The position numbers were made by a program, and so were the translations under genes. The notes below the pieces were generated by a model. The model did not search any database, was not told where the DNA came from, and saw nothing but the letters and a program-made list of their open reading frames with translations. A DNA stretch of 64,000 nucleotides from NCBI GenBank assembly GCA_039621445.1, contig CP154954.1, positions 29,397,411-29,461,410 of the forward strand, given 5' to 3'. This document shows positions 5,901-64,000 of the stretch, piece by piece. Origin of the DNA: Euglena gracilis. Lineage: Eukaryota. Position 1 is the stretch's first letter. The number at the start of each line of letters is the position of its first letter.

Positions 5901-6855
5901 AGGTGTGTCATCAGGAGGGAGCTTGTGTGCGGACAAATTAAGGACACCACGCACTCAAACCGCATCTCATTTCAGTTCACCTTGGCCACAAGTTTCTCAA
6001 AGTTCTTGAACTTGTGATGGCTAGAATGGTGTTGAAGCCTTTCCCAACCCCTCTGTTCTGGATGGCAGCACAGGCAACCAGGCCCCTCTCCCTCCCGTGC
6101 CTTCCTGACCCAACTGTCATCCCGCGCTGCTAAATGATACATCGTGGTGCACAGCCCAGGAGGAGGGGGATGCTGGGGGGCTTGTAAACCAACCAGGACA
6201 CCCGGGGCAAGCACACACAGCGCACACCTTTGTTGCGCTGTGTTGCTTTGTTGCGGAATCAGCACTGCTTTACGCGGTAAACCGCCTAACCTCAGTTTTA
6301 ACATTATTCCCAGTCCAGTCCCCTCCATAAGGGTAGATATCTTCATCACAAAAACAAATTTTGCGCGGTTTACCGCCTAACACGTCCCTTTCAGAAATTA
6401 TAGCATCTTTTGGGCAGTGCTGTCTGTTCACCTCCCTAATCACTGGACCTCGGGACTCACGAGATGTTCAAAAATAGGCGGGTTGCTTAGGCGGTTGCCT
6501 CTTCTTCACCTGCCACACCGTGTCACCCCCCTCCAGAGGGGTTCCGGCAGCATCGCCAAACAACCGGGGCTCCAGTGGCCAGGTGTTCTCCCACTGTTCT
6601 CTGTTTTTCAAAATTTCAGGGCGTTCCAGGGGGGTGTTTTTGAAAACCCCCCTAAAATGATCATAAATTTTCAAAATCGCCACATTGTCAAAATGCTTAA
6701 AATGGACCCAGAACGACCCAAATTTTTGTGCTGGTGTCACCCTCTCAAAAGTTTAACCTCAAACAGGTAACAGGTGGGGTATCGTAAGCGGAAACCCGCG
6801 CACCTCAAACGCACAGAAATTGGAAAAAAAAATTGGGCAATTCGCGCGGCCTAAG
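2966..6855. mobile_element. Decayed ~3.9-kb TIR DNA transposon with 5-bp TSD
   Basis: Left end CTTAGGTGGCGCTAATTGCCC..CCAATTTCTG. The reverse complement of the right end is CTTAGGCCGCGCGAATTGCCC..CCAATTTCTG. TTTGT flanks both ends (2961-2965, 6856-6860). Only broken ORFs inside. Confidence 0.7.
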
Positions 6856-7339
6856 TTTGTATGTAATTCCAACTTTGCCATTCACCACTTCAACGCTCTC
6901 CTTTTTTCCCTGTTACCTCCCCCCTGTCATAGCACCGGAAAATATCGACATATTGCACCGAGGGGTGCTTAGACAAGGGGGAGAATACAACGACTCAAAA
7001 AAAAAACAGCGCTCCACCTGAAAAAAAATTCCTTCCATTTTTGTCAATTGCTCAACTTTGAGGCATTTTGGGTGTATAAAGTCCACAACATCTCACCAAT
7101 TAACCTTCGTGAATAAAAATCTTCATAAAAATCTGATAAAAATACATTAGAAAAACTTGCATTCAGGGAGTGGCCTTTAAAAAGATTGTCAAGCACCGGG
7201 GAAAGGGGGGACTGGGATACTCCAGTACTTAGACAAAGAAAAGATTTCTTTCAGGGGAATATTTTGGGTCGATAACCCTCTGGTAGTTTGCGCCTAAAGA
7301 ACCTGAAGCACCAAGAAACTTGGGTGAAAAACTAGAATG

Positions 7340-7505
<166 letters not shown>

Positions 7506-7757
7506 GCAGAGAACTTCTTTGGGCTGGATAGCGCAAATATCTATGGTACAGGAACGGTGGATTTCCCGGAGTCACCCCCCTCAACTGCCTGAGTGGCGCC
7601 AGACAGGCAGGCGATGCACCAACAAGACACAGCCCGCAATCGGACAAATCTACAACCGGTTAAACAAACGCAGGGGAGGCGTCTTTTGCAGAGTGCAATT
7701 GCGGCGGGCAAGCGTTCGGGGCAAAAGGGGGTTGCTTCGCCACCAACCCCCACCCCA

Positions 7758-10700
7758 TCACGCCTCGGCCGCCATGTCCTCCTCCTCCGGCCCGTCCTCC
7801 TCGCTGTCCTCCATGTCCCACAGCAACACCGTTCCCGGCTGGGCGGTCGCCACACGGACGACAGCCCCCTACCCGCTGTCCATGTGGCCTCAACTGTTTG
7901 AATTGGCCAACACTTGATCGACGCAGGGGGGCTTTTTGAAACTAGGGGGAGGGGTCCCCACCCACCCACCGAGGGGTGTCCCCCACCCCCGGGGGAGAGG
8001 TGGGGTCTGGGGTACCCACATTTTGAGGGTCAGTTTTGGGTAAAAAAAAGCGCCGAAAAAAAGGAAAGACTGGCCAAATCCCCACCTTTCCAGGGAACCA
8101 CAAGGCCCTTAGGGTACCCCAGGGGGGTCTGACAGACCCACCCACCCTACACCCTCGACCCCTGGGTGTCCAACCTTTAAAAAAAAAACCCTGGGGGGAT
8201 TGGTAACATAAGGCTTGGGGGAAATTGGGGGGAATTGCGATTGCAGAAAAAAAACCCGCAGGAAAAATCATACACATTTCTGCTGGAGGGATTGCTGGAG
8301 GGAGAAAACTCGCCTTGAATTTCTTTCATTTTGCAATGTTGGAGGATATGTTGAGCCGCCATTCACACCTTTCCAAGCTGATTCCAGAATATAAAAAATT
8401 GTTGTCCAAAAAAAGGAACAGAATTCTGCCAAAATGTTGGGTCTCAGAAGAAAATCTGGGCAAATGCCAAAAATTTTCTAAGTCGAAATAATTTCCAGCA
8501 GCACTCTCAACCCCCCCCCGCATTTATACATTTTAATACATTTCCTGGGGAAAAAAATCCAGTCCATCCAAACCCCTGGTGGGACCTTGGTGGGGGGGGG
8601 GGGGCGTTCCAGCCTGAAACAACGAAAGAAGCCCGATGGCAGCGGCGGGGAGGGGGCTGCGCAGGCGGTGCCCCGCTTCCCAGAGCAGCACAGCAGCGGG
8701 GCGTGCTGGGGGGTGAGGGGCCGGGGCAGGGCGGTGGGGGGCCCGAGCCCTGCGGCGTGGGTCTCCGCCACCCCCGCGTGGCACCAGGGGTTGATGGGAC
8801 GGGAGGTGGGCTGGTCAAGGCGGTATGTGGGGAGGGGGGTGCCCCTGCGCACATGTGCGCGCACACACACACTGGCCAGAACGAAGAATTTTCGACACCC
8901 CGAACAAGCCAAAGAGCTTTCAAAGTTTGAAAGGAAAAATCTTATTCAAGAGGGAAAAAATAAGAAAAGTTGACCTTTGGGGGTCCCCAAGTAGGTGGCG
9001 GACACCCCACCAAAAATCCGGACACACATCGAACTCTGCAAGGAGCGCCTGGTGGATGCTTGCTGCGTCGAAGGGCTCGGTCGGCCCCCCTCCTGCCCTG
9101 GGGGTAAGCATGGGGGGGGGGCACATAAGAGTTGTCCCAACCCAACCGACAGCCACCCGCATTCCAGGTCTGGCCCAGAGTCATTGAGGAGGCTGGGCAG
9201 GCTGGCAGGAGGAGGAGGCTCTCGAGCCTCCTCGAACGTGCTCGAATGACATTCGAGAGGCTCTCAAGTCTCCTCAAATGTCGTTCCAGGTAGTTTGAAG
9301 AAGTTCGAGAGCCTCCTCAAACATGTGTTCGACCTTGAGACTGCAAAAAAATACATATTTCAACTAATTTCATCTCCCTTTGCCAATGCCCTTTGTAAGC
9401 AAATGTTTGGAGGGCCCTAAAATAACAGAATCCCTTGTGTTGCATATGCCCTGTGTGTGTGCAACTTCCTTTTGTTGTGGATGCCTTTTGCATGCAAGTG
9501 TTCGAGTGGCCCCAAAATGACAAAATCCCTTGTGTTGCATACCCTCTGTAACTCCCCTTTGTTGTCAATGCCCTTTTCGTGCAACGTTTTGCAGAGGGCC
9601 CCAAAACAGCTGCGTGTGTGCGCGTCGGAGGAGGCACTTCTAGAGCCTCCTCGAAGGTGGTCGAACGACATTTGACAAGGCTCGGGAGCCTCCTCGAACG
9701 TTGTTGGAACTGGTTCGAGGAGGCTGCCCAAGCCCCCTGGAGTGGGGCTGAAAAAAATTCGAGTCTCCTCCTATGATACCCCCCCCCGAGGAGGCAGGCC
9801 AGGCAGGAACGACAGCTGCTCCAGGTCCAGGAGGGCAACGGGGGCAAATGCCTGCCTGTTGTGCTCTGCATGTGCCGACGGTGCGAGGGGAGGAGTGGAG
9901 TCACCCAGTGGCATTTGCTGGAGCAAACCCCAAATATACTTTCAACACTTTGCAGTGCCCAATGGCTTTGATGCCCAAATAGCTTTGCAGGTGAAGGTTG
10001 AAAAACAGAAAAGAGTCCCGGGACAGCATAGACCCCAAATCAGGGCAGGGAGTATGGGTACGGGCTTGCAGCACAATGATGCCCAACATGAAGGGCTGGC
10101 TGTACAGAAGTCCTGGTTGGGGGGCTCGGCCCCCTACCCACCACAGCACCGCTGAAGGAATCTTCCTTCGGCGCCAAAGGCGCTGAAGGAAGATTCTGAC
10201 CACCTACGCCCCCAGAAATACGGAAGGTTTGATGGGGGGATGGTCGACCCCCCCCCCCGCCCACCACCCGTAGGGTTTCGGGATTTCCCATGCGGCGTTG
10301 CCAACACGATGTCGCTTTGCCACCGGCCAGGCCGGCAATGCCGGCGATGCTGCACCGCCGAACCATCCTCAGGGGGTTGAGCGGCCAGCGGTTGTCTTGC
10401 CCCCCCCCCCCCCCCCGCTGCCGCACTGGACCCCCGAAGGCAGGCACTGGGCCGAATGTCTCCGGCACGGCCGACCGGTTCCGGCTGACACCGCCAGGGC
10501 CTCCAACAAAGAGCCCCAGGCATTGCCTTGCCCCCCCCCCCCCCGTGCACGACACGCCAATGTTCCTAAATCCCGTACGCCCTCCTTTTATCGCCTCTGT
10601 ACCACCACTTTCCTCAACACCATCGGCTGCGTTCCGGGGCTGCCCCTTCCCAGAGGGGCGCAGGGTGTGGTTGCGGGGGCGTCGGCGGTGCCTCGCGACG

Positions 10701-13700
10701 GCCCTGGGCGAGGCACAGCAGGTGGACCGCCTCCCCCACCGGCGCGAGGCGGCCCCAGGGCGGTGCGGGTCGGCCCAGCGCGGCGACCCCCCCCCCACCC
10801 GCCGCAGCACTTCGCCAAAAAGGCCTTCGGCGTCCCGGAAACCGAAATGCGGCGGGGGTGGGGGGTCGGACTCCCACCCACCCACCAGGACGGGGTGGGG
10901 GGGGGGGGGTGGGGTCCGGCCACCCCCCCTCAACCTGCAGGGTTTCGGGGGTTTCCGGACCGCCCTGGGCAGCACGCCAGCAGCTCATCGCCCCACTCAT
11001 GGAAGGGGCTGCCCTGGCCGGGGCTGGCCTCAGGGGGAGGTGGGCGGTCCCCTGGACGGTGCTGGTCCGGGGCGGGGGGGGGGGGGCTGCCACCCATTCC
11101 CCTCAGTCCTCGGCGGCCCACTGGGCTTTGCGCAGAAGGACGTAATGCATTCTTCGGCACACTTCAGCCCAAACCACAAATTGTGGAGGCGAATCCGGCC
11201 CGTTTTGAACGGCGAAGGATTCTGCCGGAAGTGGTGACAAAATTGGGCGGCCCGAACAACTCACCAGGGTGACCAACCTTGGAACAGACCGCCATTTAGT
11301 GTGTTTCACAACGCATCTGTGATCCATTAATTTTTTGGCGACACATCTGTGATACATTAAATTTTTTTGGTGATACATATGCGATACATTAAATTTTAGG
11401 CTGTGATACATGTGATACGGGAAAAATTTTTTGGTGATACACACTAAACGGCGGTCTGCCTTGGAAGCGCAGGCGGGTGGCAAACAGCTGCCCGGAGGTT
11501 TTTGCTGAGCAGAAGCACACCCCTTCTTTTAGCAGCTCCTGTCACCACTGGAGCCCCAAAGAGGGCTGGGCAAGATGAGGTGCATGGACGGCCCCTGTCA
11601 AGCCAACAGGTGCCGCTCTCCAAGGCTGGCGTTGGTCCCGACAGCGGCTCCCTCAGCACCACCGGCAGCCCACCGATGCCAAACCACACACCGCACCAGT
11701 CCATGACCCAATGACGAGCAAACTGTCCACAAACCATTCTGCACCGAAAACACAAAAGGGAAAACCCCCAAAAGAAACACATCCGCGTCAACCGCCGGGA
11801 AATCGGAAACTGCAAAACACACGGCATCCGCCGAAACCGCCACAGGGGAGCACTCCAGGCCTCGGCGGGGCCAGCACGTTGCGCCGCGTCTGCGGGGCCA
11901 CGAGGCCTACGGCGAAGTGCGCAAGGCCGGCAGCGCCCGAGGCGGGGACGTGGGTGGCGACGGCCTGGGGGTTGAAGCGCAGGGTCCTGCGCGGCATCCA
12001 CCGTGGCCATTCCGCCAACAAACCAAACACGGGCCGCCTCACCGCGGCCGGCAGGGCTCCGGCCGCACAGGAGGGCGGCGGGGGCGATGCGGTCGAGGCC
12101 CACCGCGGCGGCCGGGGGCGGGGGCGGGGGGTCGCCGAACGCGGCCCCGAGCAGCCGCTCCAGCCGCTGGTGCACCGCCTGCATGGACCGCGCATCGTCC
12201 GGGGGGCCCCCCTCCAGGAACGGCAGCCGCGGCCACGCGGCCAGGCCGCTCAGCGAAGTCATTGCGGCGCCTGGCGGCCGGCACACACCACACCCACACC
12301 CGCGCACACCACCCACACACATGACACCCACCCCTGCACCACATACACAACACCACACACCCACACACGGTGCACGCACACCATCCATGCAGTTAGTGCG
12401 CCACGGCGCAAAAAAAATCATGCAGTGGTCGCAATGAAAAGAAGCTTTTTTTGCCACACACCATTGTTATTATGTGCATCATCATGATAATTAAAAATAA
12501 TTATTAATGATAATCATTAATTATTATTAAGCGGCAACGGTTATTGCCGGGGTGGACGCAGCACAAAGAAAAAAATTAGCCTCGGTGGTCGTGGCGCAGG
12601 CAATTTTGTTTTGCTGCGGTGCACGAGGTGCAGATTTTATCGGCATCGCAGAACCCCAAAAACTTTTTCGCTGCAATGAAAAAAAACAGAATTGGCTCAA
12701 TACCCTTCCATGGTCGAGAAAATATCAAAGAGGCCGGACAGAGAAGCCTGAAGAAGGTACCTGCAGCACAGAAAAAAACATTGAAAAAAAAATTGCTGGG
12801 GCAGTAATCAAAAGTTGCCGCAGCGGTCGGGGGCACAGAAATTTTTTGCAGCAGCTCTGTTAGTCACAACAATATTTTCCACCGTCGTTGCGGACCGCTT
12901 TTGTGCCACCCAACGTTTTGCTCTGGCAATTTCTTTGTGGGAACTGGCAAACCCCTGTGGTTTGCAGTGCACTAGCCGCTGGGCGTGTGGTATGGTGTGG
13001 TGTGGTCATGGGTGGGTGGGGGTGTGGGTGGATGGAGGTGGGTGTGCACACGTGTGTGCACCGGAATTCTCATGTGGGAGGGAGGGGAGGTGGTTCCCTT
13101 CGGCAGTGGATAGGCCGGGTGCAGGTCAGGGAGGGGAAGGGCGTCCAGTGGGGAGGAAAGGCCTGGGCAGCACCCCAGACTGCAGGAGGCGAGTGATGCG
13201 GCAGGCCACCCACCGCCGTTGGGAGAGCTACCCTGGGGGGAGCAAAGATAATTTTGGTTCCGAAACAGTTGGGGAAAAAAATGGGAGAAATTTTCAAATG
13301 TCCCAGACAGCCAGAAGAAAACATTTTTCCGGACCAAAAATTTTAATGGTTTCCTGAAAAACACGAAAACGCATCGGGCACCTCCACAAAAACCAGTATA
13401 CGACCCAATCTCTTACCCCCCCCCTATGTCCAATGACCGGTAACCTCTGTCCTCTGACCGGGGGGGTGGTCGTTGGACATAGGGTAGTGACCAAAAAGGT
13501 GTCCTCTGACCGGGGGGGTGGTCGTTGGACATGGGGTCAAAAGAAAGTTGGTGGGTACCCGGGTCCCTACCCACCCAAAAATGCCCAAATTTTCCCTTCC
13601 GGCGCTTTGCGCCGAAAATTTTGGGCAATTTTGACAAATTTTTGTCCAAAAAAGTGTCAAAAATGGCACTTTGGCCAAATTTTTGGCCAATTTTGGGGCA

Positions 13701-16700
13701 AAATTTTTCGTCCCGGCGCTTCACGCCGGGACGAAAAATTTGGTCAAACCTCCGAAAAGGTGTCCTCTGACCGGGGGGGGGGGGTGGTCATTGGACATAG
13801 GGGGGGGGGTCGTTGGACATAGGGGGGGGGGGGGTAAATTGATCCGAAAAAAATTGGTGTTTTCTCCAAAGTACTCTCGGGAACATTTGGGCGGGTTTTG
13901 CCCGTCCAAATTTGTCCAAACAAAATTTTTCTATGCCTCCCCTGGCATATCAAATACGGAGCGCGGGGGGGGGCTCCAGTGGCTGGCTGGGCGCGGCACA
14001 CGTCCACGCTGCGCTGCTCCTCCGCGGTCCACGGCGACCGCGCCCGCCCGACCACGGCCAGCACCCGCTCCGCCCGCGCCTGCTGCTTGTTCAGCCAGTG
14101 GAGCAGCTCCAGCATGCCGGCCTTCGCCTCCCCAGGGCTGCCGGGGCTCTGGGGAGAGGGGCGGGGGGCAGTGAGGTGGGGGGGGGCACGGTGGCACGGT
14201 GGCGGGTGTAGCGAGGGAAGGCCGGACACGTGTCCCCCGGTGCTCACCGGCCATATGCCACTACGCGGTGCCTCCCTCGGGGCCGACCAGCAGACAGGAA
14301 CCTACAACCCCCTAGCAGGGGTATCTGGTGGGAAAAATTTCCCACTGCCCGCTGCAAAGCGCCAGAAAAAATTTGACCACCCAAAACGTGCTAAAAATGC
14401 TCATTTTTGGCAATTTTTGGAACAAAATCAGCCAAAAAAAGCACATTAATACCCAATTTCCACCTCGGTGCACACTGCCGTAGGATTTTTTCCCCCAGTT
14501 GGACCCTGGGACCCTTCTGGGGGGGATGGAGAGTCCAGTGTCAGTGTCCTTTTTCTGTGGCTGGCAAAATGGCCAGCTAGTGGACCCCCAGGTCCTTGGA
14601 CAAAAGCATGGACACCTATTAGTGAAAAATCTAGTCACCTCTGCGGCCATCTGGGCCGCATAGGCACAGTGGTGTTTAGGGTTCTGCCCTCCTACTTGCT
14701 TTGCGTTTTGAGGTGGGCCTTTGCATCCAGAGGTCTTTTTAAGGTTGATGATTCCAAGGACAGCAGGCTGGGACCCAGCCCAGCGCCCCCCCCCCCAAGA
14801 GAAGTTGGGGTCGGGCTCAATGGGAACCCCTCCACTGTTTTGGACAAAAGTTTCAACATCGAGATTTCCCCCGAAGAGGAGGATGGTTCGGTGCCCCCTA
14901 GGGGTGGTACAAATGTGGGGGAGTCTCAGTGCGTAACCGGAAGAGATCCAAAAATACCCCCAATTTTTGCACCAGGGGGTAAAACAATGTATTCTGGGGC
15001 AATGATTTGATGGTCTTTTCCGAAACACCATAAATTGGCATGCCCACCACACCTGTTTTTTTCGGCACACCGTGTGATTTTTGGCCCAATTTTATCTCGT
15101 GCTGCTTCATCATTTTTCCCTCTAGGGTTATAAGTCACGATTAGCACAGGGCCAGGCAGAACGGAGATCAGTCAATAGGCTGTGGGTGCGCTGGAGGTAC
15201 AGTTTTGAAGCAGCACTCCGGTTGGCAGGGGTCCAAGGTGAAAGCAGAGCCAGAAAGAGCATCGGTGACCAAGACACCTTTTCCATTTTTTTGCGTGTTT
15301 GTTTGTGTGTGTGCTTGTGAGTGTGTTGTGCATGTGCGTGTGGGTGTGTTTTGTGTATCTGTGTGCCTGCATGTGTTGTGTGTGTTTGTGTGTGCATGTA
15401 TCTGTGTGTGGCGCATGTGTTTGGTGTTGCATGTGTGAGCTTGTGTGTGTGTGTGTGTGTGCGTGTGTGCGTGCGTGTGTGGGAGTTCCTCAAACAGGAG
15501 GGCTGTCCAGCCTCCTCCATCAGTTCTTGCAGTGGCTCCGAATGCAGTCCGAAGCTGCCGTACACTGCCGGGTCAGGGCCTGGGCAACGTCTTAGCTGGG
15601 AAGCAATGCATTCCCAGAAGAGCAAATGTTTCACACCACTACAGGAGGTTTTCCAAAACAACAACGTCAACAACAACACTTGATTAACCCAATCCATCAA
15701 CCCCGGGCTGGGCCGTGTGTCTGCCCCGCCCCCGGCTGAAATAAAGTTGAGGCCAACTCAGACTAAGTTGGTTGAGCTGAATGCTGAAAAATGTTGTTTG
15801 TGAGAGGGGTATGGGGGCTATATTATATGCCTGAAAAATCCCAACCCAGTTGGATTCAGACTTCTTCGTCACATTTCGGGTAACAGCTGGGTCCAGCCCG
15901 GCAAGCCACTTTTGAGAGGGGCTGAAATGGAACCCTCAATACCCGCTTCATGGAACTGACCCCTCCCTCCCAGGCAAATAATTGTGCGTAAAATTAGCCG
16001 GATTAAGAACAGAATAAATTAGCCCCTTGTCAATTTGGGGGGGGGACAAATTGAGCAGCGCAAAGGTGGTGAGATGCACATTTTGAACATTCTTACGTCC
16101 AATTTCACACAAAATCCTAGGGATGACCCATGTGTAGAATCCATGCAAACTACCCAAAAATTGTTGTTTGTGGTGCTTCTCGGCATTCCTGTTCCGAGTC
16201 GATTTGCATCGAAGGGAAGGTCACAAACAGGCACGCACAAAGGGGGTGACAAATGCCTGGCGGGATAAACCAGTTTGTCATTAAAAAATGGAATGGCGCA
16301 AGTAACGGCGCAGTGCGACGAACCTGTGCAATTCTCAAAAGAAGGGGAATTCCCCGGCCAATGCTCGCGTCAATCGGATCCAAGCCACACCCAGGGCACA
16401 GAACACGGCACTCAGCAGCTCCTCCACCGTGAGGATGACGTGGGCCAACCCGGGCTGCAGAACCTCCACCACCCGCCGCACCAGCTTGTGGATCGGCCGG
16501 AGGCGGCTGCGCGTCCGCTGCCACCCCCCCCCACCATGTCGGGCCTTGGGAGGGCCCAGGGTTGCAGCGGCCCTCGCACACCCGTCGGGCGACGCGCGCA
16601 ATGTGATGGCCGACCCCGATTCCCCACCGTTGGGTCCTATCCCCGCGAGCTCGCAGCTCGCCGCTCGGCGGGAGGCGGTGGTCCAACAGAAGTGCACCTC

Positions 16701-19700
16701 AACGTCGATTGGGCGGCTCACCTGCGTCATCAAAAAAATGTCCAAAAAACACGAGACCTCCCGTATTGACTGCACAGGAGGATGAGCCTGGTGAGATGGA
16801 AGTGGAAGAAATAGAAGTGTGAGAACCCCACCACCATTTGCAGCTGCATTCGCTGGCAATGGCTGTGCCGATATTCATGCTGGTGCCACCTGCTGTGTTG
16901 TGACAAGGGGGGGGGGGGACGCAACATGGACCATTGAGAAACGCGACACAAAAACCGATCTCAAAAATTGTGCAATCAATTTGCTGGAAAGAAATAAGGG
17001 CAAAGACAAACTTCCCTGATACCACACTTTTTGTCTTGACAAAAAGTGTGGTTTCAGGGAAAAAACTGGGCCAAACTATGGGAATTTTTCGAGTCGAAAA
17101 AATCTACCATTTTTTTCCAAATAAAATAGGAAAACACAAATACAACAATATGCGCCCCCATAACAGCCGTGGTGCCTGCTGTGCCATACAGCAGCGGTAC
17201 CTGCCAGCCAGTATGAACAGAAATGCATTGGCACCGCAGAAAATATTATCCCAGCAGGAGTGTCCCCTGCACAGCCGCCTCGCCTGGCTGTGGAGGGCTG
17301 CCTCTACCTGGGCGTCACTTGGCAACCCCCCAGGGGGGGTTGGGATTCAGCCCAGAGGCTAAAAAATCTGGGCTGGCTGGAAAAAAGCTGCTGGCTGACC
17401 CCCCCTCCCACAGGAATCCCCCGGCTGGTCTGACTGGGGTCGACTGAAGGTTCCAAAAAAAATCGAAACTGCAAAAAAAAACGACAAAAAGGCTGATTTT
17501 GCAAAAACAACCAATTTTAGACGCAGAATTTGCCCTGGAAAGCCCAAATCTGATTGATATTTGCCCATTTTTTGGCCCATCTTTGCACCTCCAAAGCCAA
17601 AAAAAATCCGTTGCTGTCCGGCCGTCGCCTGGGCCGCTGGAAAACAACCTCATCGATGGGATGGGGGAAGGGGGACCGGGGCTGGAAAAAGGCTGCTTGC
17701 TCGCTGGACCCTCCCCCCCAGGGGGGATGACCTCCGCTTAAGCGACGCCCTGGCCTCCACCTTCTGGCAGTGTTTTGCCGTGAAGTTGCAGTCCAGGAAC
17801 GTGTGCAGCGTCTTGCCCATGGTCCCCGTCACATGCCGGCAGCCGGCCGCCGAATGGGGCAGACCAGCCACATTTCCCCTGGTGGGGCATTGTCTGCCTG
17901 CGGGTGTGCATCCCCGCTGCGCCGAGGGTGCGGAGGGTTCGAAAATCGCCGTTTTCAAGTCAATGAAGCAGTAGCGGCCTGTTCCACTTTATATGCGACG
18001 CTTTCCTACCCGCTGCACTGTGCATTCTACCTCTGCATTTATGCTTCATACACAGCTACCATTGGTCCGCGCCGATGCATCCCTGTCTTCCATTGTACAT
18101 AGACCACCTGAGTGTGGTTTTCTGTTGTTGTAATTCTCTACTTTTTTTCATGTTTTGTTCATTAGCTCAGTTCCGGTAGGGCTGAGCCTTTGTCCAGTTT
18201 GCTTGCTCAGTCACCATTGGTCTGAGCCCCTTCTCATCTGCCTTACAGCACTGTATGATTACTCCATTTTCTGTTGATGTGAGCGCCCTCCGTGGGAGTA
18301 TGTGAGCAATAATTTCTGTTTCACTTTTTTCCCTTACTTTTTATCTTTCTGATAAAGTACCTCTCCTGCTCAGTTCTAGAACCCCTGAGCATAATAATCC
18401 ACTTACGCGGAGCCTGTACATGCCCAGGCACCAAACCAAACCAAACCAAACCACCCGCCCACCCTCTGGGGTGGGGCCCCCTGGGGGAGGGGATCCTGGG
18501 GGACCCACCCACTTTTGCCCGAAAATGGCCAAAATGCTAAAAATAGCACCCTTTTCAAAAAAGATATACCCTTTTCCGAAAAAGATATACCTGCCAGCCC
18601 CTACCCCCACCCCGTGGAGGAGGGAGTCCAAGGGGCCCACCCACCCCCCCCCCCCGGGGGGAAGGGGTCCAAGGCTAAAAAAAAAACACCTGAAAAAACA
18701 CCCTGGGGGGGGTCTGCAAAACCTTAAAGAGATGTCTGGCTCGGGATCGGTGTCATCCTCTGACACAGTTCTGCTGACGCTTCGCCGGCCCTCTGCTCGG
18801 AGGTACAGCAGCGCCGCGGCGGGGTCGACGGCCAGCCCCGCCGCCGCCAGGTCGTCCACCAGGAACTGGAACTTCTTCGTCGGGGGCACCTCCCTGGGCC
18901 ACAGCACAGAGAGTGGATTTTCAAGGACATGGGTGGTCGGGCCCAACCTGTTGTGGGGGGGGGGGGGGCTCGGGTTTCTTTCAGGGTTAAAACACAAAAA
19001 ACAGAGGTGCACATCTAGGAGTAATCTAGTGCGACCCACCCGGAGCCTGCTGGTCCCATAAAAAGAAAGGTCTGCGGCACACAATCGCCGTGCTCACAAA
19101 CCTCACAGATGGAGTTTCTCGCGGAGGTGTGATGCCGACAACCTTGCTGGGGTCCGCTCCCCCAAAATGCCGAACAAAGCTCAAATCGTGCGCATCAAGA
19201 AGAATAAAAATATGGAATTGCCGGTGATCTGACTGTCTGAGATGCACGATGGACAACTGCTCAACTGCTCAACTGCACAACGGGGGTGGCCAGGAGGGCC
19301 GTCGTATCTGCCCACGTGGACTGCAACCACCGCCCGGCACCTTCCACAGCAGGATGGCATCGGCGGAGGTCCTTGCAAAGCCCCGTTCGTAATGGGGAGA
19401 AAAATGCAGCAATGCTCCAGCAATATTTCCATTGCATAGGATTTGAACGTTTGGGTAACATTTACAATTGATGTTTGCAGCATTTGCACGACAAAGGCAA
19501 GATGAGGTTTGATGTAATTAGAATAAAAGGTGACACAGAAAGAAACTGATTAATTTGAAAATTTGAAAAAAAATTCAAATGATTTAACTTAACTTGTCAC
19601 TGAAGGCCACCCTGTCCCACGATGCCCAGCATCTCCCGCAGGTAGGCGCAGTGCGCCGCCACCGTGGCGACGGCCACCGGGTGCCGGTGCAGCGCTGCGA

Positions 19701-22700
19701 GGGGGACGGCGGCGCGGAGGAGGTCGCGCTGGAGACCGGCCTCGGGGCGGGGAGGGGGGACTTCGGCGGGCGGGCTGGGGATTGGGGTGGCCAATGGGGC
19801 GGGCAGGGATTGGGCCGGCGGAAAACCCGGCGATTGAGACGCACGTGGGTGGAAACGGGAACCACAGGGGGGACAAGGGGGTGGCCTTTGCCTCCAAAAA
19901 TAGGCAACGGCAAGCGGCGGGAGTGCAACTGCTCTGCACTCCATATCCGCCAACTGCCCCAAACCATCCGTGTTTGATATGCGCCGTATCATCCGCTATC
20001 CTTTTCCAATCTCCTTTTCATTTTGGAAAGTTCCAGTTGCCTTTCATGGATTTGTTTCGCGCGGAACCAACCGCCACGCCGGAATGGCCTGAACGGCAGG
20101 GGGGAGGCCGGCCTCCTCGGGGCTGGCGGCCGGGGCGCTGAGCAGCACATCCAGCCGGCCGTGGTCTGCCGCCAGCGCCAGGCCGTGGCAGCGGTGGCCC
20201 CCGGCGGGCAGCGCTGGCAGCGCAGGCAGGGGCCCGTCGGGCAGGGGGAGGGGGGAAGGCTTGACTGCGGCTGCAGGACTGAGCCGGACCAACCAGAGAT
20301 TTTTGAAAAAAGACTTGGAGGTGGACCCGCTTTTTGGGGCGTCAGTTTGGCAGTCAACGTAATTTTCGACATTCCGCGCAGAAAATGGGCCAGAAAAGGG
20401 GGAAACCCCAGCTTCCAGCAGGGCATCCACTCAGCCTGACCCCTCCGGGGGGACAGGGTCTGGTGGACCCCCATCCCACACCCTCCAGGGTTCCAAACAT
20501 GGGGTGAGGTACCACAGTTTGGCTGGGGGCTGCCGACCAGGAGCAGAGCTATTGCTGGCCCCTCGATGCCTTGGCGGAGGCCCTGGGCGGAGGGCTGAGG
20601 AGGGACGGCAGCTGGAGGTGCTGGATGGGGAACCAGCCGTGGGGGCGGGGCATGGGGGCAGCAGCCGAATGGGGTCGGGGGAGGAGGGGGTCATAATGCT
20701 AATCGGGGGGGGGGGTCCAGTGGATGGGAATGCCACTGATTTTGTTGACGAAAATTCCCCAAAAAGGGCCTTTTGGAAAGTTTTGGGTCAAATTGACATG
20801 CTTCGTGTCGGTCACTGTAAAAAAAACTCACTCCAGCTGGGATTTCTGACAGACCCCCCCAATACGGTGGTCCACTGGAAATTCCACTGGATGAATTTGG
20901 ACTCCTCCACCCCGGGTGGTACTGCAAGTCCTTAAGAAGACGCCTGCTGCAGGTGGCCTGAGAATGGTCGTTGTCACATCAAGCTCACAAGCTTGGTCTG
21001 TATCACAGAACGGCACACTTAACTGTGCCGGTTAGCCTGCCGTTTAGTTGCTCAGTCTGCCGTCCACACTAAACCAAGCAGCAAACTTCAGGCTCCCAGC
21101 GGTGCCAGGAAGCTTACCAGAGTGCAGCTCCCCAGAGTGCAGAACCCAGCTGGGAGGGGGAGGACCCATGCTCCGGGAAGACTTTGAAGTCCACGAGGCC
21201 CCCAGCACTGAGGCAAGCCAGGATGGAGACCTCTTCGGCGGATGCCTGGACCGGGGGCAGGGCCGAACGTTGGTGGGGAGGGCCCACGGCAATGCACTGG
21301 CCATGCCTGCTCCACCTGATTTCCATGTTTTCGAGGAGATGGAACAGGAAGGAGCGACGCCCTTCGGGTTGTGTGAAGACACAGCCAAGCACCTCTGGTC
21401 ACCCATGCCCTTGAGCCCAGCATCGCCCAGCATCGCCCAGCATCGCCTTTGAAGCCCTTGGAGGTGTACCTCTTGTACCCACATTCACTCAGATACCTGC
21501 CTCCAAAACATCCAATACAGCATCTACATGCACTTCATCCACTTTCATCCACATTTGGTCATTTACCCACTTTTACAACTTTTGGCCGCTCTTGGCCACT
21601 TTTGGCCACTTTTGGCTACTTTGCCCGATTTAATCCACCTTTGGCCGTCTTTGGCTTGCGGTTACTACCAGATATGCTTTCAATTTGACGGCTGATTGAC
21701 TGTTTTGGCTCCTTTAAGACCATTTTGGTCGGCCAAAACCAGTTTTAGACCATTGGCCACAAGCACTTCCCCCAATCCCTTACTTATCCATTTGGCCAAA
21801 CCAGCATCTGCATCCATTGCACTAATCCAATATCTGCATCTTGTTCAATATCTGCATACATTGCTTGTCTAGCATCTGCATCATTGTCCAGTATCTGCAT
21901 CTTGTCAAGAATCTCAATCTTGTCCAGTATCTGCATCCGTTGCATCCTGCATCCACTGCCTTGTCCAGCATCCGAATCTTGTCCAGATCTGTATCCACTG
22001 CATCTTGTCTCATTGCATCTTGTCCAGCATCTGCATCTTGTCCAGCATCTGCTTCTTGTCCAGCATCTGCATTGTGTCCAGTATCTGCATCTTGTCTAGC
22101 ATCTGAATCTTGTCCAGCATCTGCATCTTGTCCACCATCTGCATGTTGTCCAATGTCTGCATCCACTTCATCTTGTCCAGCATCGGCATCTTCTCCAGTA
22201 TCTGCATCTTGTCCGGCATCTCTGCATCTTGTCCAGCACCTGCATCTTGTCCAACATCTGCATCTTGTCCAGTGTCTGCATCTTGTCTAGCATCTGCACG
22301 TTGTCCAATGTCTGCATCCACTTCATCTTGTCCAGCATCGGCATCTTCTCCAGTATCTGCATCTTGTCCAGCATCGGCATCTTCTCCAGTATCTGCATGT
22401 TGTCCAGCACCTGCATCTTGTCCAGTGCCTTCATCTAATTCATCTTGTCCAGCATCTGCATCTTGTCCAATATCTGCCCAGCATTCGTCCGGTGGCTCCT
22501 AAGCAAACCAAATAACCACAAAAGCCCAACAAATGACCACAAAAAGCCCAAAATTGACCACAAAAAGCCCCAAAAGCAACCAAAATAACCAAAAATTGTC
22601 CAAAACCCCAACAAATTCCACAAAAGGTTGTGAAAAATGACCCAAAATCACCAAAAAAGCGCAAAATGGCCAAAAATGCCATAAAATCTGCTCAAAAAGG

Positions 22701-25700
22701 CCCCAATTAGCCCAATACTTGCCAAATCAGTGATAAATAGCCCCCAAATTAGCAAAAATTGACCCATAATGGCCAAAATAGGTGTAAAACTGGAGCTTTG
22801 TGGGAAAATTATCCCAAAAATGGTTCAATTCTCCAAAATATACAAGAAAAATGCCAGCATCGCCCAGCATCGCCCAGCATCGGAACCCCACCTCTGGTCT
22901 CCAAAAATCCAGCATCGCCCAGCATCGCCCAGCATCGCCCAGCATCATCAGAGGTGCTTGGACACAGCTGCGCCCCTCGAAACCAAACACCTTGCATTCT
23001 GGTGGAGCCCTGATCCTTCCTGATCAGGGGTTTTTTTTTAAGACTGGGGGGAGGGGGTCCCCCACCCATCCTCCCCCTGGGGGGGGGGGGTCCCGTGGGA
23101 CCCACTGACTTTTCCCCGAAAAATGGCCAAAGCTCGCGAAAAATGCAAAAATAGCCCCTTTTTCAAAAAAAAATTTGGCGCCTTCGGTGCTGAAAAATAT
23201 ATCCCACTGGGGGGGGGGGCTCAGCCGGACCCACCCACCCTACCCCCCCAAGACCAAAAAACCCCTGTTCCTGATTGTCCCTGGTTGGCAAATTATTGGT
23301 CAGAGGTGGGCGTATGCCAATTAAAAAAATTCACGTTTGGCCGCTTTTGGGCAGCGTTTGGCCAACTTGCCCACTGTTGGCTGCTTCTGGCCACTTTTGT
23401 CTTTGGCCACTTCTGGCTGCTTCCGGTTCCTTTTTGCATATTGGGGTTGGGTATGACCTACAAAATTGGGAGTGTAAATAATGCCCCATGTTGTAGGTGC
23501 CTGCTCATCACATTTTGGGTTGATTGTCAGAATTGTATTTTATATATGGAGTCACAGCATGGTCAGAAGCACAGGGAAAAAAATGTTTTTCCACCTCTAC
23601 ACCTCCAGCTCCTCTTGTTATACTTGCTCGTGATTTATGTGTCACTACACCTTAAAGAACTCCTATGGCTTCACATTTCACAACCACCTTTCTGTTGCAA
23701 ATCTCAGATATGTATATATAGTGTATTAGGAGTATGACTCATCTAGGAGTATAAGAGAGGAGAAAGAGAGAGAATATCTAATATCTTAAAGTATCAAGAA
23801 GATCTAAAAAAAGAGAAAAAAAACTCTGAGAGAAAAGAGAAAAAGAGACTACAGAGAGAAAGAAGAGAAAAAGAGAAGAACAATCTAAGACTATATATGA
23901 GATTCTATAGATATAGAAGCATTAGTGAATAAGAGTATAATCTATAGAAGGAATAGAGCAGAGAAATATTATCTTAAAGAGAAGACACATAAAAGGCAAA
24001 AGAAAAAAATACAAGAGAAAATATGAAAAGGGGAGAGGAAGATAGAGAGAGAGATAACTAGAGAGAGTGAGAGAGGATACCAAACATTAAAAATGATTAG
24101 AAACAAAGAGAAATAGAAACATATCTAAAGAGAAAAGAGAAGAGAGGAATAAGAATATATAGAGAGAGATAATTATATAAATCAGAAGATAAGAATAAGA
24201 GAAATAGAGAGGGAATATAGAATATGAGAGGATAGGAGAAGAATAGACAGGGGAGAGAAAAAGAGAGGAGGGGGGGGTAGAAAAGTTAGAAGAAGACACG
24301 ATGAGAAGAGAATGAGTAGATTAGAAAGAGATCTTTCTCTCTCTGACACAATAAAAAGGAGAGAGAATCTAGAAGAAGAGAAAAGAAGTTTCAGAGAGAT
24401 AAGGACTAGAGAGAGCCCTACGAGGGGGTATAAATATAATATATTTTAAAGATAATAGAGAGATAAAAAAACGAGAAAAGAGAAATAGAGTCGATATTAA
24501 ATAGAATAGAGAAGAAATATTCTATGAATATATTATAGAGATATTATAAGTAAAAAGAAGAAAATATGAGACAAAGAGAGAGTGAGAGAAGTAGGACAAT
24601 CTCTTCTCCTACAGAAGAAGAGAGAGTGAGAGAAAGAGAAGAGGAAGAGAGGAGGAGAGAGAGAGTGGAAAGAGATGAGAAGAGAGAGACAGAGGAAGGA
24701 GAGAGAGAGAGGAGGAGAGGAGAAAGAGGAGGGGAGGAGTGGAGAGGATGGAGAGAAGAGAGGAAAGAAGAGCGGAGAGAGAGGTCGAGAGAGGAGGGGA
24801 GATAAATAGAAAGATTGGGGGAGAGAGGAGATATAAGAGTAAGAGAGAAGGAGAGTCGAGCAGGGAAAGGGATGAAATGAGAGGGGAGGAGAGGGAGACA
24901 GAAGCTAAGAGTTGTAACTATTCGAGAGAGAGGAGGAGAGGAGAAATATAAGAGATATGTAATAGAGATATAGAAGTGGATACAGAGCGATGTCTAGAGA
25001 GAAAAGAGAATGGTATATTATAGAGACATAGAGAGAGGAGAAAGAGAGAAGAGATAGAAACTAGAGAGAGATATATATAATATAAAGAGGAGAACAGATA
25101 TAATAATATAGATATAGATAGATAGAACATGTATAAAGAAATAGAGAAGAGAGAAGAGGAGTATTATATGAGAGTAAGAGAGAGGAGAGAGAGAGATAGA
25201 GACTATATATATAATAGGGAGATAGAGAAGAGTATAATGATATATTGTATTATAATGCGGGGGTATATATATGTATATATATAAGATAGAAAGAGAATAA
25301 AGAAGAGAGAGAAGATATAAAGAGAAAAAGAGAGAAAAAGAGAAGAACTTAGAAAGTAAAATATACTCTATATAAAAAGAGAGAAGACATATATAACATA
25401 TAATATATATACACAGAGAGAATATAATATATATTCTGGAAGATAGAGAATATAGAGAGGAGATAGAGGATAGAAGTAGGCGTAGATAGGGGAGATATAG
25501 GGATATAAACATATAGAGACATAGAAAATAGAAAGAGATAAGAGAAAAGAGAGATAATAGAGAAAAGAGAGATAGGAGATAAGAGAGAAAGAGAGAGAAG
25601 ATAAGAGGGAAAGAAGAAAGATATAATAAGAAAGATATACAAGAGAAAGAGAGGAGGGTAGAGGAGGAGAGAGATATACAGGAGAAAGAGGACAGGAGGA

Positions 25701-28632
25701 ACAGATATAGACAGAGAGAAAGAGAATATAGAAGAGAGGGAGAGGGATGAGTAGAGGAGAGGAGGAGATAGAGGGAGAGAGAAGAGAGAGAGATGGGCGA
25801 CAGGGAGAGAGAGGGACAGAGGGAGAGGGAGGGAGAAGAGGGGAGAGGGAGAGGAGGGGGAGAGGAGAGGAGAGAGAAGAGAGAGAATAGAAGAGAAGAG
25901 AAGAAAAAGAGAAGAGAGAGATAAGGAGAGAAGAGGAGAGAAGATAGAAGAGAGAGAGAGAAAGAGAAGAAGAGAGAGAGAAAAGAGAGAACAGACAGAG
26001 AAGAGAGAGAGGAACAAGAGGAAGAGAGAGAGAGAGAGGGGAGAGACAGGATTAGGAGAGAGTGCGGATAAGAGGGATATAGAGATACATATAGGGAGAG
26101 AGATATGAAGAGGGGAGATAGAGAAATATAATATAGAGAAAGATAGAGATGAAATATATTAGAAGAGATAGAAAGAGAGGACAACAGAGATATATAGATA
26201 TAGAGATAGAGAGATATTATATAGAGATAGATATATACATGGATACAGACTATATATATAATATCGATATATAATATACATATTAATATATAAAGTATAT
26301 GTGTATAGACATATATATATATATATATACATTTGTATGTATATATGTATAAATCTGTATACATATATACATGTATATAATGTATATATATGTATATAAG
26401 TGTATATATATTATATATAATATATATAAATATAATATATATAAAATATAATAAAAATATATAAAATATAAATATATAAATATATATATATATTCTGTAT
26501 ACATGTATAATAGAATGTTTGAGTATGACAGGGGATGATGGGACACGAAGCAAATGTTGTCACTAAAACAAATGCTGTCTCTTGAGTAATATGCTCTCAT
26601 ATATACCCTCACACTCTCAAATTCACTCTCAAATATGTTCATGTGGGGGGCACTGTTGAGCCAAGCAACACTTGCCGGACAACCTGCAGCAAGTGCCGCC
26701 CTTTCAGGTGCTTGAACGGGGAGAGGTGGTCGCCCTCCCCGGCGACCGGCGGCAGGAAGGTGTCGATGGCGTGAAGCAGCCCGTGCTCGCTGTCGAGGGA
26801 GAGGGTCGGCCGTATGGGGACTGGGTTGTGAGGTGTTTGCCATCTGCAGGGATCTGTGAACAGAGCCTGGCCACCCTCATAACGGAACATCTTCGAGGTT
26901 TCTGAGTTCTCCGGGAGCTGGCAGGCAAAATGGGAGTCAAAACTTCATTCGTGCATTCCGCTGCTGAACCACCTCTGTATCATTTCAATGATGCCACAAG
27001 AGACCAGGATGCTCTCCGACAGCAAAAATAAAGAAATTAATAAGTTGTACTTGCAGAATGGTTTCCAATAACGCTGGCCCACTTGGACGTTTGGTGTAAC
27101 CATGCCAAAAACTTTGCCCTCACTTGCAAAAGTTTGGAAACTGTCACACTTGTGACTGTTCCCAAGATGTGTATGCATGCACATGCACACGCACACACAT
27201 ATACACACATGCACACACACACACACACGCACGCACGCACGCATGCACACATGCACGCACGCATGCACACACACATGCACACACACACACGCGCTCACAC
27301 ACACACACACACGACACTGGCTGAGGTGGCCACACAATGTCGCGAAGGCAAGGGAGGCAATGTATCATGAACAAACTTGAGTTGTGAAAAATAAATAATT
27401 GAAGAAGGACCCAGGGAGTTATTGACGACGCCTGACATGAAATTAGATGCAATTCTCTCCTAACACCAACACACAGCACATACAGAAATATTGGAGCCGA
27501 CCCTTTGCAGACCAGGCCTTCGGCAGACGCCGGCTCACCCAACACATGTGAGTCACAGCAGTGGTGTGCTGGTGCACCATCCGGGCCGAGGACACGGCCT
27601 CCGCGGTGGCCGAGGCGCTGAACCGCACCACGCACTTCCCGTCCTCCACCCGGTGGTCGCAGGGCCTCCCCGCCTCCAGCCCCCCCCACGCACAAAAAAA
27701 AAGTAACGGGAAAGGCAGATGAATAAAATGAAGAACACAAATAGAATGCGCCACTGTAGGACATGAAAGACAGATAGTTTGCGTGTGACCTGGCACAGCG
27801 TTCAACGGCCCGGGGCCTGGGCAGAGGTGCACCTCGCCGTTGGCCAGTCCCGCCGCCAGAAGCTTGCCGGTGGGGCTCCACAGCAGCGCCGTCACCTCCG
27901 CCGGGGTCGTCAGCTGGAACAGCCGCTGGAACGACAGCGCGTTGTGCAGGACGGTCCACGGCCGGTCACGCCGCGATGAGACGTGACCCAAAATGACTCC
28001 GATCCACTCACTCCGTCTTGGGGGGGGGGTCAGATCAACACACGTTGCACCTTGCACTCAATTGCCTCCTGAAAATGTGGTGGATGGATCGCAATGCAAC
28101 GCAGCGTTCTCAAGCTACAATATCGCTTTCAGTGGAGCGGCTGGCTAAGACTTACCTGGGGGGGTGGCCAGCATACAATTGCTTACCGACCCCCGGGGGG
28201 GGGGGAGGGGGGTCACTCCACTTTTTTTTAAAAACCAGTCAGTCACTCATTTTCAAAAAACCAGCCAGTCACTACCCCCCCCCCTGGGGGAGGTCGGCCA
28301 CTCAGAAAAACGGCCACTTTCCAGTCACTTTAGGCCATTTTAGGCCCAAAAAAATTTTCGGCGCCGGGGTCACTCAAGCCACTTTTGCCCACTCCTGGCC
28401 GACCCCCCGGGGGGGGGGGGGGGAGGGGTCCGGGCCAAAAACCAGTCAGTCACTCTGAAAAAACCAGTCACCCCCCCGGGGGGGGGGGGGGTTGGTCAGT
28501 GCTTAAGCAATTGTCTGGTGGCCAGCCGGGGGCGATGCTGCTCCGCGCCGCCACGGCGACCAGGTCCATCTCATGGCACAGTGTGACGAGGGAGATCGGG
28601 CCCGGCACGGCCTTGCTGTGGAGCAGCCGCAT
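7758..28632 (-). CDS. APC4: Anaphase-promoting complex subunit 4 (N-terminal WD40, helical domain, C-terminal WD40), roughly 20 or more short exons
   Basis: Exons 28532-28632 and 27823-27953 splice to [77 protein letters not shown], colinear with the ANAPC4 N-terminus as remembered (DLIALANTAGEVLLHRLASFHRVW...LAWRPDGKLLA). Mid exons read [17 protein letters not shown] and [19 protein letters not shown]. The last junction and exon (7758-7855) read [24 protein letters not shown]...AEA*. Several internal junctions are unresolved. Confidence 0.88.
7856..8662 (-). other. Nonconventional (euglenid-type) intron, last APC4 intron
   Basis: t|gcg CAGCCCCCT ... AGGGGGCTG tcgtcc|gt gives a 9-bp terminal stem with N3/N6 spacing. 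Joins in frame as RGTACVAT. Confidence 0.8.
10756..10967. mobile_element. MITE coinciding with an APC4 nonconventional intron (10751-10970)
   Basis: Minus-strand TIR CAGGGCGGTCCGG / CCGCACCGCCCTG. TSD gtgctgcc / gggccgcc (6/8). Removal gives [17 protein letters not shown] in frame. Confidence 0.8.
16488..17289 (-). other. Nonconventional intron following a 13-nt micro-exon (17290-17302)
   Basis: cac|agc CAG gcGAGGCGGCTG ... CAGCCGCCTC cggCCG atccac|aag. Yields VEAALHKLVRR, gap-free against remembered APC4. Confidence 0.65.
17308..17752. mobile_element. MITE coinciding with an APC4 intron
   Basis: Minus-strand TIR CAGGGCGTCGCTT / AAGTGACGCCCAG. TSD gtggaggc / gtagaggc (+ strand 17753-17760 and 17300-17307). 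Internal sequence resembles ~55165-55875. Confidence 0.88.
17835..18798 (-). other. Nonconventional intron of APC4
   Basis: ctc c|gag CAG ... ggCTG ccggc|at gtg. Joins LYLHVTG in frame, with no GT/AG at the ends. Confidence 0.75.
18170..18453 (+). mobile_element. 3' end of a 5'-truncated relative of the non-LTR element
   Basis: TCCGGTAGGGCTGAGC (18172) matches the 56-bp 3' UTR repeat of the full element. The end CGCGGAGCCTGTACATGCCCAGGCA(CCAAA)4 resembles 51781-51824. 5' boundary uncertain and may extend to ~17860. Confidence 0.75.
21805..22480. repeat. 18-bp minisatellite (TGCATCTTGTCCAGCATC)n
   Basis: Over 30 degenerate units. (AGCATCGCCC)n 10-mers lie nearby at ~21419-21447 and ~22856-22946. 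Confidence 0.92.
23025..23267. mobile_element. MITE, TIR CAGGGGTTTTTT, 8-bp TSD
   Basis: TTCCTGAT is duplicated at 23017-23024 and 23268-23275. Confidence 0.9.
23700..26520. repeat. Purine-rich AG / TA low-complexity tract
   Basis: Almost C-free scrambled (GA)n/(TA)n. Probably a long microsatellite with base-calling noise. Confidence 0.85.
27655..27822 (-). other. Nonconventional intron 2 of APC4
   Basis: ctc t|gcc CAGgcc ... ggccCTG cgacc|ac cgg. Joins VHLYRVEDGK. Confidence 0.8.
27954..28531 (-). other. Nonconventional intron 1 of APC4 (CGG/CCG variant)
   Basis: atc gc|ccc CGGctggccac ... gtgaccggCCG tggac|c gtc. About 10 of 11 positions pair. Joins SSIAVLHN. Confidence 0.78.
28172..28517. 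mobile_element. MITE, TIR CATACAATTGCTTA/TAAGCAATTGTCTG, 8-bp TSD, internal CCAGTCAGTCACT repeats
   Basis: GTGGCCAG is duplicated at 28164-28171 and 28518-28525. The element is intronic. Confidence 0.92.
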
Positions 28633-35440: not shown

Positions 35441-35475
<35 letters not shown>

Positions 35476-63373: not shown

Positions 63374-64000
63374 CTGTGCAGCACGCCACAGGCACGGGGA
63401 GGCGCGCACTTCCCAAATGGCACACTCGAAAACATGCTGATGAAGGAAGGGTTTGCTTCAAGAAAAAGCTTACGATGAGAGCGCAAAGTACGAAATGTCA
63501 GGTCACGAGGCGTGCTTGTTCCAACCCAGCTCACTTGCCGGGGTCACAGTGGCCCAAAAGGCCAGGGGCCAACTTCCGAGAGGGACAAAATCGAGCCAAC
63601 GAGTGCTGGTATCCCAATGGGAGGATACACCTTGGGGCCAGAGATTCACTTAGACCCCGGGGGGGTTTTTTCTCAGCACATCCCGTCGGCCGTTGGTCAT
63701 CCCTTGGGCCCGAGGGCGGTCCTCAATGGGCGGTCCTTCAGGAAGAAGAAAAAAATCCGTGTCCCACATGGACCGCCCTGGACCTCCCACACACCACCCA
63801 GAGGGTTTCCGGGATTCCCGATCAGCCCTGAATCTGCTGAGCATTCAAAGAAGTCTTGTGATCTTTCGAAAGCGCACTTATACACGCAGGTCCGGTCTGC
63901 GAGGCTGTTTGAGGACCTTGCTTTTTGGATTTTTCCATTGACCGACTGATGACCTTTTTGGGACAGGGGGTACATTGCTCTTCCGGATTCAAACTGCACT

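Follow-up and report, generated by a model that had tools for sequence, protein, structure and literature searches.

Nonconventional (NC) introns are described from euglenids and account for approximately 72% of the introns of Euglena agilis (PMC12501133). An origin of these introns from MITEs (miniature transposable elements that carry inverted repeats) was proposed in 2014, at a time when no transposon had been identified in euglenids (Milanowski et al., PMC3935182). It was taken up again in 2016, 2024 and 2025 (PMC4770533, PMC11282704, PMC11170887, PMC12501133, PMC12621601). Here we describe a MITE-like element at 10756-10967 of a 64,000-nucleotide window of the Euglena gracilis genome (assembly GCA_039621445.1, contig CP154954.1, forward-strand positions 29,397,411 to 29,461,410). 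The element appears to lie in the 3' part of a minus-strand gene of approximately 18.6 kb with an APC4-like 5' end. We think it fairly probable that it is an old MITE copy in an exon of this gene and that it is excised as a Euglena-type NC intron.

The sequence code of NC introns, 5'-N3CDG-/-CH'GN5-6|R-3', was defined by knock-in mutagenesis in Euglena (Nomura et al. 2025, PMC12501133). The 3-nt spacer at the donor side tolerates no change in length, that at the acceptor side measures 5 nt and may also be 6, and the next exon base is preferably a purine (PMC12501133). According to the same source, 61% of NC introns carry the signature and the junctions of 84% of introns are "slidable".

The Discussion of that article states that the origin of NC introns "remains unclear" (PMC12501133). 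Eight-nucleotide direct repeats have been described at a recently gained NC intron of the E. agilis gapC gene, and break repair was suggested to explain them (PMC4770533, 2016). Two Merlin families with 8-bp target site duplications (TSDs) are reported from E. gracilis itself (PMC8101967). Spacers, CAG/CTG repeats, repeats that resemble TSDs and a single 8-nt repeat are already in the literature. A full-text search, covering the main text of articles, returned no link of the form 3 + 5 = 8 between spacers and duplication, and no named element families or superfamily behind NC introns. The locus presented here is a well-formed instance of the published MITE-origin hypothesis and not a new kind.

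Element anatomy and fit to the intron code

The element is 212 nt long and, read on the minus strand, has the termini CAGGGC-R-G, as established by direct reading, a scan for terminal inverted repeats (TIRs) and TSDs, and family alignment. Its arms, CAGGGCGGTGCGG on the left (10756-10768) and CCGGACCGCCCTG on the right (10955-10967), are 13-nt TIRs that are complementary at 12 of 13 positions. On the RNA strand the 5' TIR (10955-10967, minus strand) reads CAGGGCGGTCCGG, and its CAG occupies intron positions +4 to +6; the 3' TIR (10756-10768, minus strand) reads CCGCACCGCCCTG, and its CTG occupies positions -8 to -6. When no mismatch is allowed the TIR pattern matches only these two arms in the 64 kb. 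At up to two mismatches eight matches are listed against 3.28 expected, a number reached in two of 100 shuffles.

The 8-mers that flank the element on the minus strand, GTGCTGCC (10975-10968) and GGGCCGCC (10755-10748), are identical at six of eight positions, and both mismatches fall within the first five. In the upstream copy, GTGCT/GCC (10968-10975, minus strand), the first 5 nt would be exonic and the last 3 nt form the N3 spacer. In the downstream copy, GGGCC/GCC (10748-10755, minus strand), the first 5 nt form the N5 spacer and the last 3 nt would be exonic. The original prediction, made from the letters alone, had drawn this 212-bp element with its TIRs and had placed both TSD differences in the 5 nt whose downstream copy is intronic; direct reading of the arms and of the 8-mers bears out both points. 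The element itself is without exon-type codon periodicity in any frame (GC at third codon positions 0.68-0.82 with GC at second positions 0.68-0.82). The reading frame that enters from upstream meets a stop 12 codons into it.

Together with one copy of the flanking repeat the element makes up a predicted NC intron of 220 nt (10751-10970, minus strand), with borders GC..CC and G as the next exon base. The interval reads GCC-CAG...CTG-GGGCC followed by G, and it matches the code position for position under the published rule (PMC12501133). The donor side has exactly three spacer nucleotides (GCC) before CAG at +4 to +6. The acceptor side has CTG, the 5-nt spacer GGGCC and a purine, G, as the first exon base. 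The junction can be slid by 3 nt, N3 being identical to the exon's first three bases. By direct reading, neither GT-AG nor GC-AG borders are present in the 220-nt interval, the slid versions being CC..CG, CC..GC and CA..CC, and no AG stands at or near the 3' border of the element. With borders GC..CC this is therefore not a spliceosomal intron or an Introner. A conventional GT...AG intron was considered and rejected: with the only such pair nearby (10961/10705) the downstream exon, which is the best exon-like block, would be lost.

The predicted RNA fold of 10741-10985 has a minimum free energy (MFE) of -157.3 kcal/mol (z -3.5), and none of 200 shuffles folds as well. A terminal stem that pairs the intron ends is found in both the MFE and the centroid structures. 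Short stems alone mean little, since a loose signature scan (stem extension of at least 6) gave 229 candidates in 4 kb and a scan for TIRs of at least 8 gave 2308 pairs vs 1727 in shuffles.

Probable coding context and host gene

A cut after GCGTGCT and before GCCTCGCG takes out the 220 nt and joins two frames with no stop. The upstream flank (11030-10971) has GC contents at first, second and third codon positions (GC1/GC2/GC3) of 0.74/0.58/0.89, and the downstream flank, a probable exon of 41 nt at 10710-10750 (minus strand), has 0.92/0.38/1.00. In each the exon pattern appears only in the frame that the original prediction had proposed. The probable upstream exon is placed at 10971-11025 (minus strand); its upper boundary is uncertain, 11025 being taken from a CTG-N5|A site. 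For comparison, the four homologue-supported exons of the same gene have GC1 of 0.64-0.72, GC2 of 0.40-0.57 and GC3 of 0.89-0.95. When the element and 8 nt are removed, the 96 nt around the site form one uninterrupted frame with values of 0.88/0.47/0.94, and only one of 63,904 contiguous 96-nt windows is as strong. The exon-type periodicity ends at the element borders and again at 10710. The proposal that the N3/N5 cut would join the flanks in frame thus stands: 220 nt are removed, no stop is met and the periodicity is of the exon type.

All four confirmed exons were recovered when the periodicity was scanned blind, and the scan also flagged 10757-10692 in the same frame as the original prediction. 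Further exon-like blocks, arranged colinearly, were returned between 20.2 and 9.8 kb. Downstream of the 41-nt exon the signature scan gives a candidate for the next NC intron, 220 nt long, at 10490-10709 (minus strand; GCC-CAG...CTG-GCGGT|G), which keeps the frame. A further candidate of 217 nt lies at 10139-10355 (minus strand; GTG-CAG...CTG-TGGTG|G); its removal (10355->10139) would join two exon-like frames in phase. If both candidates (10709->10490 and 10355->10139) are used, one open frame is kept through four blocks. Composition and frame together support a coding context for the element.

Homologue searches around the element gave little. A search of the ESM Atlas with a 40-aa exon gave no usable match. 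A homologue search with the exon at 12268-11942 returned nothing but this ORF in the DNA of another sample (P0002, 98% identity). Between the window and P0002 with the contig of DNA run X2, 11942-12268 (minus strand) shows six base differences, two amino-acid changes and no indels, while the adjoining 11403-11940 shows approximately 12 substitutions plus indels in the same comparison. The numbers are small but hint at coding constraint on 11942-12268.

The APC4-like character of the gene comes from its 5' end. The ORF at 27446-28057 (minus strand) matches PF12894 (ANAPC4_WD40) with E 5.8e-7 and 30.1 bits vs a cut-off of 22.9. A search among 1.84 billion representatives gave 1077 matches, nearly all of them generic WD40 proteins; the useful one was P0009 (268 aa), whose first approximately 160 residues are a spliced homologue and whose best Pfam family is PF12894 (59.7 bits), situated immediately behind the start codon. 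By tblastn of P0009 the APC4-like 5' exons lie at 28632-28534, 27952-27823, 27654-27521 and 26809-26744 on the minus strand. The first begins at an ATG and the last is weak.

These exons provide a control for the intron code within the same gene. The 168-nt interval at 27655-27822 (minus strand) reads GCC-CAG...CTG-CGACC|A and fits the code. The cut that the code predicts (27822->27655) makes a T|AC codon, and P0009 has a tyrosine exactly there with no gap. In-frame conventional alternatives at this place fail when checked by eye. At the level of sequence, the spliced homologue confirms that the NC code operates at least once in the host gene.

The flanks of the element are on the same strand as the APC4-like exons, 17 kb downstream of them and colinear with the exon-like islands, and they probably belong to the same gene. 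When the WD40 exons and P0009 were searched among longer proteins, only generic WD40 proteins and no C-terminal homologue were returned. Some likeness to the APC4 helical domain may exist in the exon-like islands at 20.1-14.0 kb, but it carries no weight here. The assignment of the interrupted gene to APC4 in the original prediction is supported at the 5' end, where PF12894 and P0009 agree; it stays putative for the flanks of the element 17 kb downstream, which have no Pfam, PDB or homologue match.

Related elements, sequencing reads and the rest of the window

The whole window was scanned for inverted repeats with CAG at the start and CTG at the end, at least 10 nt long with at most one mismatch and 40-1500 nt apart. 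There are 63 such pairs, whereas 20 block shuffles contain 24.1 on average. The 8-mer flanks agree at 6/8 or better in six of these pairs: four at 8/8, one at 7/8 and one, the element at 10756-10967, at 6/8. The shuffles have no case at 7/8 or above, and at 6/8 they average 0.05 each. The comparison with shuffles indicates that CAG...CTG elements with 8-bp target duplications are a real feature of this genome, and because the TIRs differ among them there must be several families.

The four elements with perfect duplications are 337 nt (647-983), 174 nt (11285-11458), 243 nt (23025-23267) and 453 nt (35344-35796) in length. The second is a MITE with 20-nt TIRs (one mismatch), the duplication CCTTGGAA on the plus strand and flanks that show no coding periodicity. 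The other three have unrelated TIRs and noncoding-looking flanks, and that at 23025-23267 lies inside the host gene. All four, two of them inside the host gene, give the impression of having inserted into introns or noncoding DNA of another sort; that at 11285-11458 looks like an insertion in an intron and not like an intron itself.

The element at 10756-10967 has the hallmarks of a MITE, and its family is not that of the window's other CAG-ended elements, as the original prediction had suggested and as the TIR/TSD scan and the family alignment bear out. Three family members are found within the 64 kb. The first 25-30 nt of its termini and its inner blocks are common to two other loci, a decayed relative at 10107-10304, which has the same orientation and degraded termini, and a member of 605 nt with 16-nt TIRs and a 7/8 flanking repeat at 52431-53035. 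All three have CAGGGC-R-G termini followed by a GGAA...CGAAA block, and they also have in common a G-run and a left inner block of the form C-run...CAGCA. The G-run/C-run core of 10756-10967 resembles repeats at 38.1, 29.6 and 52.5 kb. Two further candidates for this family were discarded. The predicted intron at 10490-10709 has no sequence similarity to the element, and a mini-element with the same termini near 63716-63780 has no convincing flank repeat by eye.

The locus at 10107-10304 had been taken for a more decayed copy that fills a nearby intron. The kinship holds, since the subterminal module and the left inner block align with those of 10756-10967 in the same orientation. As for the filling, the candidate interval that conforms to the code is 10355->10139, which contains most of the relative, and not 10304->10107. 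The 605-nt member has exon-like flanks in another gene and its excision would restore an exon-like frame; the ORFs that adjoin it have no Pfam match. On compositional evidence, then, one family would serve as introns twice in the window. Exon-like flanks are found at only two of the six TSD-bearing CAG-ended elements (10756-10967 and 52431-53035), and both belong to this one family. Within this window, the earlier suggestion that several unrelated MITE families generate introns is not upheld.

Part of the stretch is contained in 20 of the 24 listed sequencing runs, none of them recorded as RNA. Reads of RNA runs X21, X22 and X24, which carry the same species label, and of DNA run X2 were mapped on 9001-15250. 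With 1-16 reads in each 209-nt bin when the three runs are pooled, the RNA depth is approximately 1x. First mates of the stranded run X24 lie almost only on the plus strand over 10464-12344, which indicates minus-strand RNA. The RNA depth of the bins at 10464-10881 is like that of other presumed exons; 11091-11508 has almost none.

The X2 depth of the bin that holds the element is 156 vs a baseline of 105-120. An X2 contig runs across 10515-10796 with one difference and crosses the 10751/10756 border, so that the element is present there; no empty-site joint is among the joints listed. The scarcity of near-identical copies fits an old insertion. The MITE at 11285-11458 is very high copy, with a bin depth in X2 of approximately 140,800 vs approximately 110 at baseline and an RNA depth of approximately 0.

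Several other features of the mapped region affect read depth. Homopolymer tracts of C or G of approximately 17 nt at 10399-10418 and 11069-11086 attract many RNA reads that match in part and have loose ends of poly-C or poly-G, an artefact that inflates the depth of the two bins adjoining the element. Repeats at 13390-13807, 9210-9627 and 14226-14434 reach a summed DNA word depth of up to approximately 2,070,000 vs the baseline of approximately 110, and they occur in RNA too, with strand bias in X24.

The window as a whole consists of GC-rich islands in AT-richer, repeat-laden DNA and has no Rfam match. Long open frames of 976, 706 and 313 aa at 45160-51104 (plus strand), the first with an Exo_endo_phos domain (PF03372, E 3e-10), suggest a LINE-like retroelement. 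An 18-nt tandem repeat of approximately 34 copies at 21864-22477 produces a false exon-like periodicity and a weak LED_rpt match. A (GTT)55 microsatellite lies at 7340-7505. A 2.5-kb purine-rich AG low-complexity block occupies 24000-26500 and is followed by AT repeats.

Probable origin of the predicted intron and comparison with known systems

The origin that we favor would run as follows. The ancestor would have been a small non-autonomous DNA transposon with 8-bp target duplications and the ends CAGGGC...GCCCTG. It would have inserted into a minus-strand coding exon and later decayed. Its terminal CAG and CTG, together with the two target copies, would have supplied the full NC signal: N3, CAG, the stem, CTG, N5 and a purine. 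The pre-mRNA would be cut at two points, one lying 3 nt upstream of the element and the other 5 nt downstream. Excision would take the element plus exactly one 8-bp copy (3 + 5 = 8), and the frame that existed before insertion would be restored. The predicted junction is presumably used in vivo.

Several observations weigh against this reading. The flanking repeat matches at only 6/8, and the chance that both differences fall in the N5 part is 10/28. In X2 the element is approximately single copy at 95% identity or more, so that its diverged relatives are what speaks for a multi-copy element. All four elements with perfect TSDs sit in DNA without coding periodicity (flat GC1/2/3). For the flanks, no Pfam family was found at E of 0.1 or less among 132 ORFs of the minus strand (5975 to 23651), and no APC4 family among 12 chosen ORFs at E of 10 or less. 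A PDB sequence search with two presumed exons gave no match and no APC4, and the searches made found no homologue of the element flanks. PF12896, the APC4 long domain, is likewise absent from the 132 and the 12 ORFs at these thresholds, a miss that is expected because the exons are short. Generic WD40 proteins match PF12894 too, as did 13 of 13 other proteins scanned. Two introns of the gene, introns 1 and 3 (within 27522-28533), are without a simple fit to the code by eye, which agrees with the 61% of NC introns reported to carry the signature (PMC12501133). Neither has frame-keeping GT-AG borders, and intron 1 has a terminal stem of 9/10. The joints listed come from DNA contigs, and at approximately 1x RNA depth there is no RNA joint across the element among them. 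Finally, the bin at 10673-10881, which is mostly element, holds more RNA than an exon of 41-78 nt predicts; late intron removal, retention or misplaced repeat reads are all compatible with this excess.

Some of these points could be read to mean that the element is a MITE relic within a larger intron, a 3' UTR or intergenic DNA, with chance frames for flanking "exons" and no splicing at its ends. The missing homologues, the missing RNA junction at this depth and the noncoding-looking setting of the four perfect-TSD elements count toward such a relic, as do the related G-run/C-run repeats packed into 10.0-11.3 kb and the open frames that are common at 64-74% GC. It is nevertheless unlikely. Both flanks have the exon GC pattern only in those frames that are continuous after removal of the 220 nt, the pattern stops at the element borders and at 10710, and the RNA depth at 10464-10881 resembles that of other presumed exons. 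The RNA in the bin at 10673-10881, as abundant as in exon bins, bears more on whether the element is removed at all. If it were removed poorly or not at all, the gene copy or its 3' end would be disabled or the product truncated at the stop 12 codons in, and the one TIR mismatch and the absence of an RNA joint among those listed are in keeping with this. We regard it as very unlikely. Nothing is altered in CAG, CTG, the lengths of the two spacers or the purine, the positions found to be important (PMC12501133). NC introns are reportedly removed late, so that retained forms are expected (PMC6221363, PMC11282704). The flanks keep a strong coding composition, and the element is present in a second sample (the X2 contig).

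A true NC intron could also have acquired its stem and flanking repeat in place or by double-strand-break repair, in which case the likeness to a MITE would be convergent. The code alone selects CAG/CTG-ended stems (PMC12501133), double-strand-break repair has been offered for an 8-nt repeat (PMC4770533), and the imperfect flank match and near single-copy status of the element would suit such an origin. We consider it distinctly unlikely, because two further loci have the same termini and inner blocks, and one of these, at a distance of 42 kb, has a 7/8 repeat of its own. Moreover, the perfect 8-bp duplications of CAG-ended families in noncoding DNA are a mark of transposition and not of splicing. 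An old MITE insertion excised as an NC intron remains the reading that we prefer.

A more general proposal is that the whole class of NC introns goes back to CAG-terminated transposons with 8-bp TSDs that inserted into exons, and that the spacers sum to eight (3 + 5 = 8) for that reason. We put this forward tentatively and would not give it even chances. It would explain in a simple way why the code has spacers of 3 nt and 5 nt. If it is true, the window shows a single family in both states: young copies, flanked by perfect duplications, would lie in noncoding DNA, and the older ones would serve as introns within exons. One could go further and suppose that the machinery of excision recognises the ends of transposons and may thus have descended from, or co-evolved with, a transposition system.

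The hAT superfamily of transposons has 8-bp duplications and C-A-G-like termini. The CAG-ended elements of the window resemble both hAT and Merlin elements in their short TIRs and in the 8-bp duplications seen in four to six of them. They differ from Merlin, whose TIRs end in GG (PMC8101967), whereas those of the window elements end in CAG. The host gene resembles APC4 in that its 5' exons match PF12894 and the spliced homologue P0009. It is unlike APC4 in that PF12896 was not detected in the ORFs scanned and the exons adjoining the element have no detectable similarity.

The closest parallel in mechanism is provided by the Introners of Micromonas, Aureococcus and dinoflagellates, in which a non-autonomous transposon in an exon becomes an intron and the TSD helps to define the splice sites (PMC11282704). 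Introners are spliceosomal and are spliced at GY-AG, whereas the element described here has GC..CC borders and no in-frame GY-AG pair that keeps the downstream exon. In its non-GT-AG borders, CAG/CTG pairing, 3-nt and 5-nt spacers, purine, slidable repeats and terminal stem the predicted intron is like the NC introns described from euglenids (PMC12501133, PMC3935182, PMC4770533). Unlike those, the intron at 10751-10970 is predicted from sequence and coincides in extent with a repeat-family member that has 13-nt TIRs and an 8-nt flanking repeat. A code-fitting intron of this kind, beside families with perfect TSDs in the same 64 kb, makes the MITE hypothesis directly testable.

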